Shown here in pieces: positions 10,389-59,523 of a stretch of DNA of 64,000 bases (position 1 is the first letter of the stretch; every line of letters begins with the position of its first letter). The notes beneath the pieces are model-generated. The model was not told where the DNA came from. It saw only the letters and a program-made list of their open reading frames with translations, and made no database searches. The position numbers were made by a program, and so were the translations under genes. This DNA is from a phage. The stretch lies in the sequence record OZ335963.1. One strand, 5' to 3'.

Positions 10389-11976
<1,588 letters not shown>

Positions 11977-11984
11977 AATAAAAT

Positions 11985-12003: not shown

Positions 12004-12506
12004 TTAAAAATATTTTTTAAAACTCATCATAACTTTATCATCAACATCATTATCAATCTGTGCTACAAGATAAGATGAAAGTTCTACTTCTTGTGGCGCG
12101 GATTGAACATTATCAGAATTAAGGTATTCACGAATCCAAGGATACGGATGTTTAACCGGAGCATCGGTAATTGGGCATGGAAGACCACACTGTTTCATAC
12201 GAGATACAGTCAAGTAATCAATAAAGTTCCACATGCTATTTGTATTTAATCCAGGAACATCGCCATCTTTAAATAAATGAACTGCCCAGTCTTTTTCTTG
12301 ACGGTTAACTTCCATGAAAATATCAACTGCTTCTTGTTCACACTCTTGGGCGATTTTAACCCATTCATCACCATCAGTGCCAAGTTGAAGTTGACGAATA
12401 ATATATTGGGTGCCTTTAAGGTGAAGCTGCTCATCACGTGCAATAAACTTCATAATCTTGGCATTACCTTCCATGATTTCCATGTTCTTATGGAAGTTGA
12501 AAGTAC
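12004..12506 (-). CDS. nrdB: ribonucleotide reductase small subunit NrdB, exon 2
   Basis: Encodes ...TFNFHKNMEIMEGNAKIMKFIARDEQLH...; joined to exon 1 it reconstitutes FYVSFAC|TFNF, cf. E. coli R2 FYVSFACSFAF. Confidence 0.75.
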
Positions 12507-13597
12507 CGTTATGTTCGATTGAGCTCGCTAATTCTCAACCCGTTCTCTTATGAACTGCTACATATTACTATGCAGACCAGACTATATCACAATCCCAGAG
12601 GGATTCTCCCCATTTCGAGTCGCTTGACCCTACGTCCGAAGACTAGTCGTTGAACCTTGCTTTGCAATTGTCGCCGTGCCATCGTTTATATGTTGATGGT
12701 GATAAATCTTTCTTATCACAATATGGACAATTCAATTGAATTCTATTTGGATTTAATTTACATCTGTCATTATGTTTTAGATAAAATCCAGGACCTTTAC
12801 CAATGTGACCGCAGAAATCACATGTGATTTCTTTTTGTGCAGGATGGGTCCCGTTCTTAACCATTTCTAATGTTTTTGCTGATGTTCTTTTCTTATGGTC
12901 TTCTGACAAGAAATGATGTGAACCGTCATTTACCCGTTTTGATTGAGTTTCTGACTGCATTTTACCACCGCAAAATACATGAGTACCTTCTTTTATAGCT
13001 GCAATATTGCGTTCTTTAACTTTTGCAATATGCTCAGCTTGTTGAAAATTATGTATACCTAATGCAACTCTATTTAAATTAGATTTACGCTGTATTTCAC
13101 CGTCTAAAAGATGAAATGTACCATTTTCTATCTTAGATTTAATAGAGGCAATATTTTTAGCTCGTACTTCAGGGATATTAAAAATCTGGATTTCTCTAGA
13201 TTTTGCGGCTTTAGAAGCTAATTCAGAAATTTCTTCAGGAGAATATTTCATTCTAAGCTTTATAGCATGACAAGCCTGGTAATCTTTTTGAGCTAAATGT
13301 ATATCATAATGTTCCTGTATAGAAAGGCACATCAAATTATCTAAATCATTATTTTCACGGTTACCGTCTTTATGATGGATTTCGTATGTTCTTCCATCAG
13401 AATCTTTAGGTATAGGTCCGTTAGCATCTATCCAAATTTTTCTATAGTTCAATTGTGCATCCTCTTAAAAGTATAATCATATTTATATTATACTAATTAA
13501 AGGTGCAAGCAAAACCTTGGCTGCTAGTTTTCCTATAAAGGACTTTCCAGCAATTAAAGGAGTTTTCGATAAACGTTACCGTTTAAAGGCGCATTTT
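12507..13597 (-). mobile_element. group I self-splicing intron in nrdB (~1091 nt) carrying a homing-endonuclease ORF
   Basis: NrdB frame is broken by stop codons right after FYVSFA and resumes ~1.1 kb later; proposed exon 1 ends in U and intron ends in G. Exact splice sites are inferred. Confidence 0.7.
12643..13452 (-). CDS. I-TevIII: intron-encoded HNH homing endonuclease, full length 269 aa (I-TevIII-like)
   Basis: HNH motif EIHHKDGNRENNDLDNLMCLSIQEHYDIH plus C-terminal Cys clusters (CDFCGH...CPYCDKK); lies wholly inside the nrdB intron, with its own AAGAGG SD. Confidence 0.8.
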   Translation of the reverse strand: MNYRKIWIDANGPIPKDSDGRTYEIHHKDGNRENNDLDNLMCLSIQEHYDIHLAQKDYQACHAIKLRMKYSPEEISELASKAAKSREIQIFNIPEVRAKNIASIKSKIENGTFHLLDGEIQRKSNLNRVALGIHNFQQAEHIAKVKERNIAAIKEGTHVFCGGKMQSETQSKRVNDGSHHFLSEDHKKRTSAKTLEMVKNGTHPAQKEITCDFCGHIGKGPGFYLKHNDRCKLNPNRIQLNCPYCDKKDLSPSTYKRWHGDNCKARFND

Positions 13598-14273
13598 ACG
13601 CAAAAGATACATAAAAACGAATAGCTTCTAAGGCATTAATGACATGCAGGCAGAGATAAAGAGATTTCATTAGTGCTCGTTTAGCTTCGGCTTCTTGTTT
13701 AATAGCTCGATTTAAACGAAAATCAGCATCAGGAGATTCTTTAGCTAGTTCTACAAATTCTTTAGCATTTTCCCATTCACGGGTCTTCTTAAGAACATCA
13801 TCGTAATAGCGACCAATGGACTCAGCACGTTTCATAATATCTTCATCTAATACAATCTCATCAAATACCTTTGATGGATCAGTATAAAGATTTCGCATGA
13901 TATGAGTATATGAACGACTGTGAATAGTTTCACTAAAAGTCCATGTAGCAACCCATGTATCAAGACTTGGATCTGAAATTAATGACATAAGTACAGCAGA
14001 CGGTGCACGACCCTGAATGCTATCTAGAAGTGATTGATACTTCAGGTTATTAGTAAAAATATCTTGCTGATACTGAGGAAGCTTATTAAATTGTGCAGCA
14101 TCCATCATCAAGTTTACTTCTTCAGGACGCCAGAAAAATGACAACTGCTTTTCGGTTAAATCTTCAAAAACTTTATGACGTTGAATATCATAACGCGCAA
14201 TACCAAGACCTGAACCGAAGAACATGGGTTCTTTTAAAACATCAACTGGATTTGTATTAAAAACTGTGCTCAT
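13598..14273 (-). CDS. nrdB: ribonucleotide reductase small subunit NrdB, exon 1
   Basis: MSTVFNTNPVDVLKEPMFFGSGLGIARYDIQRH...EAIRFYVSFA, class Ia R2 N-terminal two-thirds. Confidence 0.8.
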
Positions 14274-14324
14274 AAATTTTCCGCTTAGTTAATAGATAGT
14301 GACTCGTCCGTGAGTCAAATTATA

Positions 14325-17146: not shown

Positions 17147-18006
17147 TTACACCGCCATCTTTCCTTTAATTGGCGGGTGAGATACATAGTTGTTAAGAAC
17201 AAAATTATGCGGCTTTGCGAATTGACTCAACCAAAATACCTGCGATTCTGTGTCCCATTCATCAAATTCATCTGGAAATTTTAATTGTAATTCGCATAAA
17301 TCCATAGGTTCACGACGCAAAATTTCTTTACATTGTTCTACGTGATTCATATAGATATGAGTATTACCACCAGAAAATATCAAATCTCCTGGAATAAGAT
17401 TACACATCTTAGCTACAATATGAACTAACGTAGCATATGATGCAATATTAAATGGAAGACCGAGGAAAACATCTACCGAACGTTGATACCACTGCAGATC
17501 CAAATAGCCATTACGCACATTAAACTGATAGAACATATGACAAGGTGGTAATGCCATTTGCTTAAGTTCTGCCGGATTCCATGCTGAAACAATTTGACGT
17601 CTATCATTTGGCAGTTTTTTAATACGTTCAACAACTTCTATAATTTGGTCTACGCCACCAAAATCGCGCCACTGTTTTCCATAAATTGGACCAAGTTCAC
17701 CGCTATGGTATCCTAAATCTTTTGCTTGTTTTTCGTAATTTTCATCCCAGACTGTTTTGCCTTGAATTAATGAATCATGTTGAATTAATCGCAAATCATT
17801 GACATTTGTGCTTCCCGATAAAAACCATATTAGCTCAGCAATGCAAGCTTTCCAGGCAAGCTTCTTAGTCGTTACTGCAGGAAAACCTTTAGTTAAATCC
17901 CAGCGTAATTTAGTACCGAACAAAGCAATTGTTCCTGTGCCTGTTCGGTCATCGGTTTCATAACCATTTTCAAAAATGTCTTTAATTAAATCCTGGTATT
18001 GTTTCA

Positions 18007-18007
<1 letters not shown>
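17147..18007 (-). CDS. td: thymidylate synthase, 286 aa, uninterrupted (no intron)
   Basis: MKQYQDLIKDIFENGYETDDRTGTGT...PPCHMFYQF...: one continuous ORF covering the whole enzyme including the active-site region. Confidence 0.95.
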
Positions 18008-19039
<1,032 letters not shown>

Positions 19040-45466: not shown

Positions 45467-45496
45467 ATTATACCACATCCTTGTGGTAAAGTAAAC
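45467..45496 (-). promoter_or_regulatory. T4 early-type promoter (GTTTAC / TATAAT)
   Basis: Minus sense GTTTAC-18 nt-TATAAT upstream of the rIIA.1-rIIA unit. Confidence 0.5.
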
Positions 45497-47316
45497 TATT
45501 GGCTCATCCATTCTTTACGAAGGTCAGCATTATCTCCCATGAGCATTTCAAAAAGCTCTTTCCAGTTCTCAGGAAGTTTAACAACATCATATACTGGGTT
45601 TTGAATCATCTCACGATATTCAGATTTTTCCAAAGAGCCAAGTCCCTTAATATAACGGATGCTATGTTTAGGTAGAGCATCTTTGGCACTCTCATATTCA
45701 GCGACTGTATAAAACCATTCTTGTTTTTTACCGACCTGAGCGATGATTACAGGAGTTTTGACGAAGCGAATTCTTCCTTGTTCAAACAGTTCTGGCCAAT
45801 TACTAAAAAATCCGAGCAGAGAAGGATAAATGCTTCCTAGACCATCATGGTCAGCATCAGTCATAATAGCAATATTATGATAATTCAAGTTTTCAGCCTT
45901 TTCACCAAGAACTAATCCAGTGATTGCGCAAATATCAAACAGTTCTTTGTTTTTAAGCATATCAGCATATGACATACCCCAACTGTTGAGAACTTTACCA
46001 CGTAATGGATAACCACCATGAAGTTCTTTATCACGAACATCAATAAGATATCCGATAGCAGAATCACCCTCAGTCAAGAAAAGAGTCGTGTCAGCGTCTT
46101 TACCACAAAGATTCGCTTTAATATGTTTATGAACCTTAGCTTTAGAAGCCTTTTTAGCTGCTTTAGTTTCTGCTGCCTTTTCTGCAGCCAATTTACGAGC
46201 CAAGGCAGCTTCAATAATTGGCATTAAAATTGCTTCATTATTTAAAATAGCGCGTGAAATCTTTTTAGCATCAAGCTGAATATGACTACGAATTTCACCA
46301 AATGGAGAAGTCAAACGCTCTTTAGTCTGAGAATCAAATCGCATGTTTTTCATATCACGAACAAACATAACGATAGTCAAACATTCTTTAACACGTGCTT
46401 TAGTTACATCAATTTTGAATTTACGTTTGATTTGTGGAATAAGGTCTTCACAAATATCATCCATAACACAATCAATGTGATGGCCACCATTCTTAGTATG
46501 AATGTTATTGACGTATGTTAATTGACGAAAACCATCCGGTGAACGACCAACCGCAATAGAACAATTTTCTTGTTCTTGAACAATAGCATGCTCATCATAT
46601 TGGCGTGCATATTTCTTAAAATTACCCTGAACCTTTTTACCATTAAAGGTAAATTGAATATCAGGATAAACTACTGCAAGTGTCTGGAGACGATCCAGTG
46701 TAATGTCAAGATAAACTTGAGATAGCTCATTAGTTTCAAATGACATAAAATCAGGAATGAAAGTAACGCGAGTTCCTTTCCATTTTCCAGGAATATCTTC
46801 CCATGATTTATTTTCCATGCCATTTGAACAACGAACTACAATATTATTTTGACCGTCGCCAGTTTCACCGACAAACATCACAGAAAAAATGTTAGTTAAA
46901 CTAGAGCCAACACCGTTCATACCGCCAGTGACGCGTTCTTTATCATCACCAAAGTTACCACCTGCTTTTGGAATAGTCCAGGCAGCAACAGGACCAGGAA
47001 TTTCTTCACCAGTAGGTGTTTTAACCATCGCTTGTGGAATACCACGACCGTTATCTTCAACTGTTACTTGATTGTTTTTAATAGTAACATTAATTTTATT
47101 CGCGAATTTAAACTTAGTACGAATACCTTCATCTACTGAGTTATCGATAATTTCATCAATAAGCTTAACAAGACCAGGTACATACTGAACACTTTCCCAT
47201 TTACCAAACAGAAAGCGCTCATGCATTTCATTAGCAGAAGAACCAATGTACATGCCGCTACGCTTTTTGATATGTTCAATATCGCTCAGAATTTTAATTT
47301 CATTCTTAATCATCAC
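45496..47316 (-). CDS. 39: DNA topoisomerase II large (ATPase) subunit gp39, uninterrupted, 606 aa
   Basis: GHKL ATPase motif VEDNGRGIP; a single ORF covers what is split between genes 39 and 60 in T4. Confidence 0.9.
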   Translation of the reverse strand: MMIKNEIKILSDIEHIKKRSGMYIGSSANEMHERFLFGKWESVQYVPGLVKLIDEIIDNSVDEGIRTKFKFANKINVTIKNNQVTVEDNGRGIPQAMVKTPTGEEIPGPVAAWTIPKAGGNFGDDKERVTGGMNGVGSSLTNIFSVMFVGETGDGQNNIVVRCSNGMENKSWEDIPGKWKGTRVTFIPDFMSFETNELSQVYLDITLDRLQTLAVVYPDIQFTFNGKKVQGNFKKYARQYDEHAIVQEQENCSIAVGRSPDGFRQLTYVNNIHTKNGGHHIDCVMDDICEDLIPQIKRKFKIDVTKARVKECLTIVMFVRDMKNMRFDSQTKERLTSPFGEIRSHIQLDAKKISRAILNNEAILMPIIEAALARKLAAEKAAETKAAKKASKAKVHKHIKANLCGKDADTTLFLTEGDSAIGYLIDVRDKELHGGYPLRGKVLNSWGMSYADMLKNKELFDICAITGLVLGEKAENLNYHNIAIMTDADHDGLGSIYPSLLGFFSNWPELFEQGRIRFVKTPVIIAQVGKKQEWFYTVAEYESAKDALPKHSIRYIKGLGSLEKSEYREMIQNPVYDVVKLPENWKELFEMLMGDNADLRKEWMSQ

Positions 47317-58872: not shown

Positions 58873-59523
58873 TTATTTTTCCTTTCTTATGAAGTTTTCT
58901 ATCATATGTCTATAGCAGATATTAGGATAACCTGCCTTGACAGCTATTTTATTAAATTTTGTGCGCTTAGGTCTATTATTATAAACCCATAATTCATAAA
59001 GCGCATCATAACTATTCCATATTTCTCCTCGCCTAGGATTTGGTAAACCATATCGAGGCGAATTTTTACCGCTAAATCTTCCTTTTCGGGCTTTACTCAT
59101 ATTAGCCTTGGCTTCATCGGATATAATTTTACCTTTATGAGCTAGACGCATTTTGGCTTTAGTTTCTTCTGGAGTCTTTTTGCCTTTAATCCATGACGGC
59201 TTGCCATATCTAGGATTATTTTCACCCGAGAAAAGAACAGAGTTTTGGATTTTAAGGGTTTCTATTAATCTACTTGTTAATTTAACACCTTTATTATATC
59301 GCATTAAATTTACAGCATAATGCAATCCTCTCACATCTGGATATATTTTAGTTAATAATCTATGAGCTATAAAATGCTCACGCGCAGTTAACTCAACAAG
59401 ATTGTTTTTGCCATCTGCTCCTCCCATACATCTAGGAATTATATGATGGCGTTCTTTATATCCGCCAAGATGCCGGCATTTAGCTTTTGTAATTAAAGCC
59501 GAGTAAATTTTTTGGTAATTCAC
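58873..59523 (-). CDS. free-standing HNH homing endonuclease with NUMOD3-like repeats, 216 aa
   Basis: HNH motif ERHHIIPRCMGGADGKNNLVELTAREHFIAH; C-terminal ENNPRYGKP / KNSPRYGLP repeats; only in-frame start is GTG at 59523 with AAAGGA SD. Confidence 0.75.
   Translation of the reverse strand: MNYQKIYSALITKAKCRHLGGYKERHHIIPRCMGGADGKNNLVELTAREHFIAHRLLTKIYPDVRGLHYAVNLMRYNKGVKLTSRLIETLKIQNSVLFSGENNPRYGKPSWIKGKKTPEETKAKMRLAHKGKIISDEAKANMSKARKGRFSGKNSPRYGLPNPRRGEIWNSYDALYELWVYNNRPKRTKFNKIAVKAGYPNICYRHMIENFIRKEK

Follow-up and report, generated by a model that had tools for sequence, protein, structure and literature searches.

An RB3-Type Group I Intron Encoding Full-Length I-TevIII Interrupts nrdB in a Phage Genome

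INTRODUCTION

The RB3-type intron of nrdB and its endonuclease I-TevIII are known biology, having already been characterized genetically and biochemically. The full-length intron of phage RB3 was described by Eddy and Gold in 1991 (as cited in PMC2988022), and RB3 I-TevIII was characterized by Robbins et al. in 2007 (PMC1865063). Alanine mutants of H26, H27, N39, and H48 abolish cleavage by the RB3 enzyme, and mutagenesis has established that C211, C214, C242, and C245 bind zinc and have a role in DNA binding (PMC1865063). The published cleavage activity is that of the RB3 allele only, which carries D23 (PMC1865063). A promoter and a sequestered ribosome-binding site have been described for I-TevIII, and a late promoter with such a sequestered site is common to other phage introns with homing endonucleases (PMC2988022). 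In T4, the intron depends on the adjacent MobE for homing in trans (PMC2790892).

Here, we analyze a window of 64,000 nt (the whole stretch of DNA considered) from phage record OZ335963.1, in which the nrdB feature lies on the minus strand. The original prediction that this gene is split by an intron proves correct but ordinary: nrdB is interrupted by a known group I intron with I-TevIII. We are close to certain that the element is the RB3-type nrdB group I intron of Tequatrovirus, with full-length I-TevIII in its P6 loop. The prediction was silent on the earlier description of the full-length version in RB3.

RESULTS

Exons and splice junctions of nrdB

The NrdB frame opens with an ATG at 14273 and runs to ...FYVSFA, where the open reading frame (ORF) list and its translation show a stop codon. 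The interruption, predicted to be about 1.1 kb long, is an intron of 1091 nt on the minus strand (12507..13597), which starts with AAAAUGCGCC and ends with a terminal omega-G (G12507). It separates exon 1 (13598..14273, minus strand, 676 nt) from exon 2 (12004..12506, minus strand, 503 nt including the stop codon). Both exons were delimited by the ORF list, translation, alignment with E. coli R2, and colinearity with phage ECML-134. Cutting after U13598 and before G12506 takes out exactly the 1091 nt of the intron and yields a predicted NrdB of 392 aa that reads ...EAIRFYVSFAC followed directly by TFNFHKNMEIMEG, joining ...FYVSFAC to TFNFHKN.... In the predicted RNA, ...UUUGCGU is followed by GUACUUUC.

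Splicing restores the conserved R2 motif, as had been proposed. Over residues 3 to 388, the 392-aa product can be aligned with E. coli R2 (1piy_A and others; E = 4e-126), and the junction region is free of gaps (FYVSFACTFNF versus FYVSFACSFAF). This full-length product, colinear with E. coli R2 and with the NrdB proteins of ECML-134 and T4, belongs to the class Ia R2 subunits. The spliced DNA junction is likewise colinear and gap-free with the intron-less nrdB of ECML-134. Matches to the spliced junction sequence occur in 655 phage records, with at least 80% covered at one place in 548, a figure that takes in some short-intron alleles besides intron-less nrdB. None of the alternative boundary placements restores GCGTGTAC. 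The junction boundaries are supported by the translation, by the T4 junctions, and by ECML-134 colinearity. The splice points put forward earlier are exact, since identical junction sequences in T4 bound a 598-nt intron and give a 388-aa NrdB. In the 1980s, the T4 intron was reportedly shown by experiment to splice at this identical junction sequence.

Group I ribozyme core

At the gathering threshold, an Rfam search of the whole window returned no match. The negative result does not argue against such an intron, because the ORF breaks the model, as seen from an E-value search and from alleles lacking the ORF. In the E-value search, the native intron scored 33.9 bits against Intron_gpI (RF00028; E = 1.3e-6), with only the 3' half aligned, in which J6/7-P7 and P7' are matched as signature sequences; the native score stays below the threshold because an ORF of about 800 nt in the P6 loop splits the model. 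The CE1 and SG1 alleles, which are natural alleles with the ORF wholly or largely deleted, reach 68.6 and 57.9 bits, respectively, against a gathering score of 50. Group I membership rests on this ORF-less core and extends to the window through CE1, whose core differs from the one described here solely by a 2-nt indel in a loop. The covariance-model check suggested with the original prediction thus supports a group I intron, as does the folding check: in the predicted structure, all of the helices from P1 to P9 can be placed in the intron.

The ends are those of a group I intron, with a 5' exon ending in U and an intron ending in G. In the predicted P1, GCGU of the exon faces GCGC, the internal guide sequence (13592..13589, minus strand), so that U13598, the last base of exon 1, lies opposite G13592 in the U.G wobble pair of the 5' splice site; as drawn, P1 has 4 bp only. 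The 5' ribozyme core (13509..13597, minus strand) was assigned from the CE1 Rfam alignment, the minimum free energy (MFE) fold, coordinate mapping, and compensatory changes in P2 and P5. On the same strand, it comprises P2 (13585..13570), the 5' strand of P3 (13562..13557), P4 (13552..13547 with 13527..13522), P5 (13542..13531), and the 5' strands of P6 (13521..13519) and P6a (13515..13509). The 3' core (12507..12665, minus strand), assigned from Rfam alignments, structure coordinates, and pair counts, opens with the 3' strands of P6a and P6 (12665..12654), followed by P7, which forms a pseudoknot (12648..12644 with 12584..12580), P7.1 with a UUCG loop (12643..12634), P7.2 (12630..12617), the 3' strand of P3 (12611..12606), P8 (12605..12591), P9 (12577..12557), P9.1 (12555..12542), and P9.2 (12540..12517), all on the minus strand.

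This 88-pair model, including the P7 pseudoknot, leaves 99.8% of cells paired, compared with 36 to 44% when the partners are slid. Among the seven closely related sequences that make up the covariation sample, compensatory double changes occur in five pairs (two in P2 and one each in P5, the P6 extension, and P9), and P3, P4, P6, P7, and P8 are invariant, hence neutral as evidence. Pair conservation and covariation together support conserved core helices P3 to P8 with a P7-P3 pseudoknot. Guanosine-dependent self-splicing has reportedly been observed for the T4 derivative of this intron, whose junction sequences are identical and whose core is nearly so. Within the ORF, weak Rfam matches (rseX, ceN113, and Atu_L1; E = 4 to 6) are attributable to chance, and a tRNA scan of the window came back empty.

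The I-TevIII reading frame and its upstream hairpin

The ORF in the P6 loop (12643..13452, minus strand) encodes 269 aa from a TTG start to a UAG stop (12645..12643), and at its 3' end some 23 nt are shared with ribozyme helices (P6a and P6, 3' strands; P7, 5' strand). An H-N-H catalytic domain covers residues 4 to 48 (13309..13443, minus strand; Pfam HNH_3, 48.7 bits, cutoff 24.8, E = 6e-13), in which H26, H27, N39, and H48 are all kept. A motif search located two zinc fingers of the form CX2CX12-13HX3C at residues 211 to 231 and 242 to 263 (12664..12822, minus strand), with C211, C214, C242, and C245 present; by analogy with the RB3 enzyme, the two fingers form the DNA-binding and dimerization end of the endonuclease. 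The intact H-N-H and zinc-finger ORF noted earlier is I-TevIII: 268 of its 269 residues are identical to those of the RB3 enzyme, the sole change being Y23 here versus D23. Orthology is further indicated by the intron and position shared with RB3 and by the same start codon, since TTG is also annotated for RB3 I-TevIII. A Pfam FlgM match at residues 74 to 114 (26.2 bits, cutoff 25) sits in a repetitive basic linker and was judged spurious.

Directly upstream of the ORF, a local hairpin within the P6 extension (13456..13507, minus strand) pairs CACCUUUAA with UAAGAGGAUG and sequesters the predicted Shine-Dalgarno sequence AAGAGG (13466..13461). Its fold energy of -14.9 kcal/mol (z = -3.94) was equaled by none of 200 shuffles, and one of its pairs is compensatory. 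The T4 late-promoter motif TATAAATA lies at 13487..13480, mostly in the apical loop. Because motif statistics show no enrichment of TATAAATA in the window (7 found versus 9.45 expected), we base the late-promoter assignment on homology with the element mapped in T4. A sigma-70 promoter scan did no better than shuffles (9 found versus 9.7 expected).

Spread and mobility

The spacer between nrdA and nrdB (14274..14324, minus strand) is 51 bp long and holds a short hairpin, GACTCACGGACGAGTC. The lack of a mobE-like ORF there, which had been pointed out, is borne out, as nothing MobE-like was found in the 51 bp between the nrdA stop and the nrdB start. The RB3 spacer holds a 732-bp mobE, the T4 spacer holds mobE and nrdB.1, and the closest relatives, ECO07P1 and e11/2, share the 51-bp spacer length.

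JK45 and G2469 carry an identical intron (100%), and the introns of RB3, RB5, and RB9 match at 99.9%. ECO07P1 differs at 2 of the 1091 intron nt and at 50 of 1179 exon nt, which makes the intron ~20 times less diverged than the flanking exons. The comparison with JK45 sets an identical intron against exons that are 84.6% and 76.5% identical; for UTK0003, the intron is 89.4% identical and the exons are 71.7% and 75.9% identical. Full-length elements occur at one shared site in about 85 phage records, and the spliced reading frame is intact in each. The low divergence of the intron relative to the exons agrees with a recent horizontal spread through homing. The substitutions at +5 and +8 of exon 2 (ACT TTC for ACC TTT) were considered as phage-specific features and set aside, being synonymous and also present in e11/2.

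The suggestion that the intron may still be mobile agrees with these sequence signatures and with experiments published for the near-identical intron of RB3 (PMC1865063). Alternatively, the intron could splice but have lost autonomous mobility, with I-TevIII (Y23, TTG start) inactive or unexpressed and the element persisting passively or through trans-homing. Position 23 is only 3 residues before catalytic H26, the assayed allele is D23 only (PMC1865063), and a first study, according to the introduction of PMC1865063, failed to demonstrate mobility of the RB3 intron; moreover, the defunct T4 copy is kept through MobE-driven trans-homing (PMC2790892). However, Y23 is common to JK45, fPS-2, and the divergent, 89%-identical UTK0003 ortholog, which makes it the commoner and probably the ancestral state in I-TevIII. 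The dN/dS of the ORF against the UTK0003 ortholog is 0.12, so by this sequence comparison the protein is under purifying selection. All of the catalytic residues and zinc ligands are intact, and a TTG start is annotated in RB3 as well. Finally, no mobE sits beside nrdB to act in trans, yet the intron is far less diverged than its exons. We regard a loss of mobility as very unlikely, and low intron divergence together with purifying selection on the ORF fits an active homing element.

Alternative readings of the interrupted gene

Most of the deposited relatives carry two "ribonucleotide reductase beta" coding sequences (CDSs) plus an endonuclease, as would be expected if a free-standing HNH gene had divided nrdB in two, each fragment being translated on its own before reassembly. 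The nrdA gene of Aeromonas phage Aeh1 is a known gene in pieces of this kind, and an in-frame ATG at 12483, 8 codons into exon 2, could be taken as the second start. However, starting there would lose the conserved CTFNFHKN, which aligns with R2, and direct reading of the sequence upstream of this ATG revealed no visible Shine-Dalgarno-like sequence. The sequences on either side of the ORF make up a group I core, which shows compensatory changes and, in alleles lacking the ORF, exceeds the Rfam threshold; the last bases of the 5' exon and of the intron are U and G, respectively; and the curators of T4 and RB3 annotate a join. The locus therefore differs from the Aeh1 nrdA type in having a ribozyme core on both sides of the ORF and a downstream fragment without translation signals of its own at the break, and we consider separate translation highly improbable. 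Other intervening elements, for which an ORF lying within a gene is the sole support, have a negligible probability and are refuted by Rfam, Pfam, and the junction translation: there is no Rfam group II match; the insert is out of frame, with a stop after FYVSFA, and cannot be an intein; no reverse transcriptase or transposase domain accompanies HNH_3, the sole domain counted from Pfam; and an IS-like insertion inactivating nrdB is at odds with an element found at one site in more than 85 phages, each with an intact spliced frame.

DISCUSSION

Our analysis establishes the anatomy of the nrdB intron, its junctions, its family memberships, its near-identity to a characterized element, and its signatures of conservation and spread. 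For the splicing chemistry, expression timing, cleavage geometry, and homing, we draw inferences from the published work on T4 and RB3. By analogy with these systems, the primary nrdB transcript would fold as a group I ribozyme, in which exon GCGU and intron GCGC form P1, helices P3 to P8 with the P7 pseudoknot form the core, and P2, P7.1, P7.2, P9, P9.1, and P9.2 form the periphery. The intron would then remove itself through two guanosine-initiated transesterifications, and exon joining would produce a functional 392-aa class Ia R2 subunit. In early transcripts, the ribosome-binding site of I-TevIII would be hidden in the local hairpin, while transcripts from the intron's own late promoter would lack the 5' strand of that hairpin and allow the endonuclease to be made late in infection. 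During mixed infection, an I-TevIII dimer would bind intron-less nrdB through its zinc-finger end and cut it at positions -14 and -16, and repair of the double-strand break would then transfer the intron, along with short stretches of the adjoining exons, to the recipient.

Across the Tequatrovirus records compared, of which about 130 contain the intron, nrdB is found in several states. The intron-less gene probably accounts for several hundred records. The full-length, presumably mobile form is present in about 85, with the copy in the window lacking the mobE helper. Independently truncated ORFs are represented by the T4 and SG1 types, and a precisely ORF-less form, the CE1 type, would correspond to recombination between two ACAATTG repeats.

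At this one site, public T4-like genomes may preserve every stage in the life cycle of a homing element, including, in the window, spread without MobE; we rate this idea as likely as not. If it is true, the dynamics of invasion, decay, and loss would be quantitatively testable from sequence data alone.

With about 85 deposited phage genomes holding the full-length element, the locus carries little weight as a discovery. Its correct annotation is join(14273..13598, 12506..12004) on the minus strand, together with I-TevIII. Related GenBank records mostly split nrdB into two CDSs or call the pieces "hypothetical", and in the CE1 record, exon 2 is labeled "major capsid protein".

Among known systems, a group I core is shared with other phage introns, namely, T4 td/I-TevI, T4 nrdD/I-TevII, and introns from Staphylococcus, Bacillus, and T7-like phages, and the 3' half (P7-P3'-P8-P7'-P9) has 70 to 92% local similarity to many of them. 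These introns differ in their host genes and insertion sites, and I-TevI and I-TevII are GIY-YIG enzymes, not H-N-H enzymes; the td gene in the window is intron-less. The alleles with a wholly or largely deleted ORF (vB_EcoM_CE1, PD112, BYEP01, CJY920, and SG1) share both the insertion site and the ribozyme core. In CE1, the ORF has been precisely deleted between the ACAATTG repeats, leaving 304 nt, whereas a different deletion in SG1 leaves 420 nt.

The 598-nt T4 nrdB intron has the same junction sequences and retains the zinc-finger-encoding 3' end of the ORF. Relative to ours, its core shows only a small number of substitutions, among them one compensatory pair and one G.U-to-G-C change in P9, as well as two 1-nt indels (in the P5 loop and 3 nt from the 3' end). 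The T4 copy is truncated, as the original prediction had it: a 491-nt out-of-frame internal deletion has removed the H-N-H domain and the linker, and the record labels the ORF "I-TevIII homing endonuclease (defective)", whereas the ORF is intact here.

The closest characterized system remains the RB3 nrdB intron, with the same insertion site and 1091-nt length and 99.9% nucleotide identity (97.1% in a whole-gene search over exons and intron). RB3 also shares the 269-aa enzyme with an H-N-H domain and two zinc fingers, the TTG start, the upstream hairpin, and the promoter, and its record gives nrdB as a join of two pieces, together with I-TevIII. It differs in having D23 in place of Y23 and a 732-bp mobE in place of the 51-bp spacer. 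The locus described here is thus another natural case of a full-length I-TevIII intron without a neighboring mobE.

The split nrdB gene

On the minus strand, the NrdB frame runs from an ATG at 14273 to ...LEAIRFYVSFA, where a stop codon follows immediately, and it reopens ahead of ...MEIMEGNAKIM to end at 12004; a 269-amino-acid ORF with a TTG start lies between the two pieces (13452..12643, minus strand). Excising 13597..12507 (1,091 nt) in silico fuses ...UUUGCGU with GUACUUUC... and yields a 392-amino-acid NrdB in which FYVSFAC joined to TFNFHKNMEIMEG spans the junction, so the frame break and junction of the original prediction were exact to the nucleotide. None of the alternative boundary placements gives back GCGTGTAC. 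Among solved structures, residues 3-388 of the spliced protein align with E. coli R2 (E = 4e-126), gap-free at the junction (airfyvsfacTfnf versus airfyvsfacSfaf), and the spliced sequence is colinear, with zero gaps, with the intron-less nrdB of phage ECML-134. A synthetic spliced junction of 146 nt matched 655 phage records, in 548 of which one place covers at least 80% of it, and many of the matches listed are single unbroken pieces. The gene is annotated as a two-piece join in RB3 and T4, and in T4 identical junction sequences bound a 598-nt intron, giving the 388-amino-acid T4 NrdB. By three independent sequence comparisons (solved structures, intron-less genes, and curated records), the nrdB junctions are real.

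Misannotation is common in public records (CE1, ECO07P1, JK45, and many others), where each nrdB exon is given a CDS of its own or the label "hypothetical protein"; exon 2 of CE1 (1828-2307 of L003, the CE1 sequence compared here) is labeled "major capsid protein." Directly downstream of nrdB lies denA (endonuclease II; 11566..11979, minus strand), in which Pfam recognizes a GIY-YIG domain (E = 2e-6). Going by the annotation of its RB3 and T4 orthologs, it is a host-DNA degradation enzyme and not a homing endonuclease belonging to the nrdB intron.

An RB3-type intron and its deletion alleles

The window as a whole is Tequatrovirus DNA, and across 25 kb it is ~95-97% identical to the deposited phages closest to it. 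Searched against 50,697 phage records, the 1,091-nt insert was matched in 129, with at least 80% of it covered in 85. It recurs at 100% identity in Escherichia phage G2469 and in Shigella phage JK45, the RB3, RB5, and RB9 group being 99.9% identical, and the RB3 record annotates the corresponding ORF as I-TevIII. Judged from these matches, the element is the RB3-type nrdB intron with I-TevIII, already described and not new. The original observation is confirmed and its reading supported; what we observed directly is how the element is built, the families to which it belongs, its near-identity to the RB3 intron, and its evolutionary signatures.

The original prediction had T4 carrying a truncated version, and T4 indeed matches just 56% of the insert, with an aligned 491-nt internal deletion that takes out the ORF's N-terminal half and leaves the remainder out of frame; in the T4 record, what is left is called "I-TevIII homing endonuclease (defective)." The SG1 variant is 420 nt, and ORF-less alleles of 304 to 309 nt occur in CE1, PD112, CJY920, and also BYEP01. 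In these four alleles, the deletion runs precisely from one copy to the other of a 7-bp direct repeat, ACAATTG, the first copy overlapping the I-TevIII start codon (13456..13450, minus strand) and the second lying near the 3' end of the ORF (12671..12665, minus strand), and the 304- to 309-nt ribozyme stays intact (the CE1 intron is at L003 1501-1804). The ORF deletions of T4 and SG1 are different from this type and independent.

The group I ribozyme

At the gathering threshold, Rfam gave zero matches in the whole window. At an E-value threshold, the covariance-model search that bears on the predicted group I identity placed RF00028 at 12798..12558 (33.9 bits; E = 1.3e-6), with the 3' half correctly aligned (AAGGUUCAACGACUA ... 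GAUAUAGUCU) and the 5' half forced into the ORF. The native intron falls below the gathering threshold because its ~800-nt ORF occupies the P6 loop; the ORF-less CE1 allele reaches 68.6 bits and SG1 57.9 bits, both above the gathering score of 50. When the ORF of the window is cut out between its two ACAATTG repeats, the remaining 306-nt core differs from the 304-nt CE1 intron by one 2-nt loop indel only.

An MFE fold with the P7 pseudoknot placed P2, P3, P4, P5, P6, P6a, a P6 extension, P7, P7.1 (UUCG loop), P7.2, P8, P9, P9.1, and P9.2. P1 is just 4 bp long: exon GCGU pairs with intron GCGC, and the splice site carries the U.G pair. Having P7.1 and P7.2 between P7 and P3' is the arrangement of subgroup IA, in which the T4 introns are placed. 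Across 7 distinct alleles, a small and closely related sample for covariation, paired cells amount to 99.8%, versus 36-44% with partners slid 1-3 columns. Compensatory double changes occur in five pairs (two in P2 and one each in P5, the P6 extension, and P9); the central helices are invariant and thus informative neither way.

Locally, the intron 3' core is 70-92% similar to the group I introns of Staphylococcus, Bacillus, T7-like, and other phages. Its last ~90 nt (P9 to the 3' end) are 86.5% identical to an "ATPase" gene region of Pseudoalteromonas phage pYD6-A (16993-17079 of database match H80), and the P7-P3'-P8-P7' segment also matches many Staphylococcus, Bacillus, Yersinia, Pectobacterium, and Vibrio phages at unannotated or gene-internal sites. 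These sites, in pYD6-A and the other phages, are probably unannotated group I introns.

I-TevIII and its expression

In RB3 I-TevIII, which is active as a dimer and on which mobility of the RB3 intron depends, the mutations H26A, H27A, N39A, and H48A abolish cleavage, and C211, C214, C242, and C245 belong to two CX2CX12-13HX3C zinc fingers required for DNA binding (Robbins et al. 2007, PMC1865063). The window ORF keeps 8 of 8 key residues and both zinc-finger motifs, and Pfam HNH_3 covers residues 4-48 at 48.7 bits (cutoff, 24.8), in agreement with the intact HNH and zinc-finger protein originally read. The sole protein difference from RB3 is at position 23 (Y in the window, D in RB3); since Y23 is common to JK45, fPS-2, and the divergent ortholog of Salmonella phage UTK0003 (Gelderlandvirus), D23 of RB3 is the unusual state. 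Codon differences from UTK0003 (56 synonymous and 28 non-synonymous; dN/dS of ~0.12) point to purifying selection on the protein. By eye, the linker from the H-N-H domain to the zinc fingers (12835..13200, minus strand; residues ~85-206) looks like five tandem ~22-amino-acid modules, each closing on G-[TSI]-H-x-[FP] (NGTFHLL, LGIHNFQ, EGTHVFC, DGSHHFL, and NGTHPAQ). A marginal Pfam FlgM match (residues 74-114; 26.2 bits) falls in this modular linker and is probably spurious.

Just 5' of the TTG, a hairpin at 13507..13456 (-14.9 kcal/mol; z = -3.94; equalled by 0 of 200 shuffles) pairs CACCUUUAA with UAAGAGGAUG and buries the Shine-Dalgarno AAGAGG, and most of the T4 late-promoter motif TATAAATA (13487..13480) falls within its apical loop. 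Since this motif shows no enrichment across the window, we infer the late-promoter step from the mapped T4 element. The fPS-2 record has a predicted middle promoter at the equivalent of 13511..13487. In published work, the I-TevIII ribosome-binding site is sequestered in early and middle transcripts and freed in late-promoter transcripts from the intron, which lack the 5' strand of the hairpin, and a putative operator overlaps the intron late promoter (PMC2988022). By homology, I-TevIII would be regulated in this way in the window.

Mobility and comparison with T4 and RB3

The intron is conserved far above its exons: compared with ECO07P1, the closest phage overall, there are 2 mismatches in 1,091 intron nt and 50 in 1,179 exon nt; with JK45, the intron is 100% identical and the exons 84.6% and 76.5%; and with UTK0003, the values are 89.4% and 71.7% and 75.9%. 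The junction-proximal 43 bp of exon 1, with the published cleavage positions, are invariant among the Tequatrovirus intron carriers examined. Recent horizontal spread through homing would leave just such a pattern. The suggestion that the intron may still be mobile fits its lower divergence and the I-TevIII-dependent mobility of the RB3 intron (PMC1865063).

Most likely, NrdB would be restored through guanosine-initiated self-splicing, I-TevIII would be expressed late in infection, its dimer would make a double-strand break in intron-less alleles at positions -14 and -16, and the cut allele would gain the intron through repair copying. The splicing chemistry, timing, and homing in this scheme are drawn by analogy from published T4 and RB3 work.

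Elsewhere in the window, td (17147..18019, minus strand) is unbroken, with a single continuous Pfam Thymidylat_synt match that spans all 266 profile positions (1-266); the phage thus lacks T4's td intron and I-TevI, yet it carries the full nrdB intron. A 606-amino-acid ORF (45496..47316, minus strand) holds GyrB-type ATPase, DNA_gyraseB, and TOPRIM_C domains together, so gene 39, for the large subunit of topoisomerase II, appears unsplit. In T4, genes 39 and 60 are parted by mobA, and gene 60 has a translational bypass.

The original prediction also placed no mobE between nrdA and nrdB. The spacer from the nrdA stop to the nrdB start is indeed 51 bp (14324..14274, minus strand), a length common to the closest relatives, ECO07P1 and e11/2, and tblastn with RB3 and T4 MobE queries found no MobE in it. 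A spacer hairpin, TGACTCACGGACGAGTCA (14300..14317, minus strand), is terminator-like by scan, and its stem is kept in both relatives. Far from nrdA/nrdB, the N-terminal ~130 residues of a 216-amino-acid ORF (58873..59523, minus strand) are 48-62% identical to the T4/RB3 MobE H-N-H endonuclease (tblastn E = 5e-29), and the phage thus has a mobE-like free-standing homing endonuclease gene there; by size and order, we take its neighbors to be candidates for T4 genes 56 and 61. Between nrdA and nrdB, RB3 has a 732-bp mobE, and T4 has mobE and nrdB.1. T4 MobE moves the defunct T4 nrdB intron in trans (Wilson & Edgell 2009, PMC2790892); unlike T4, the phage studied here lacks an adjacent MobE helper, and the intron's own endonuclease is intact.
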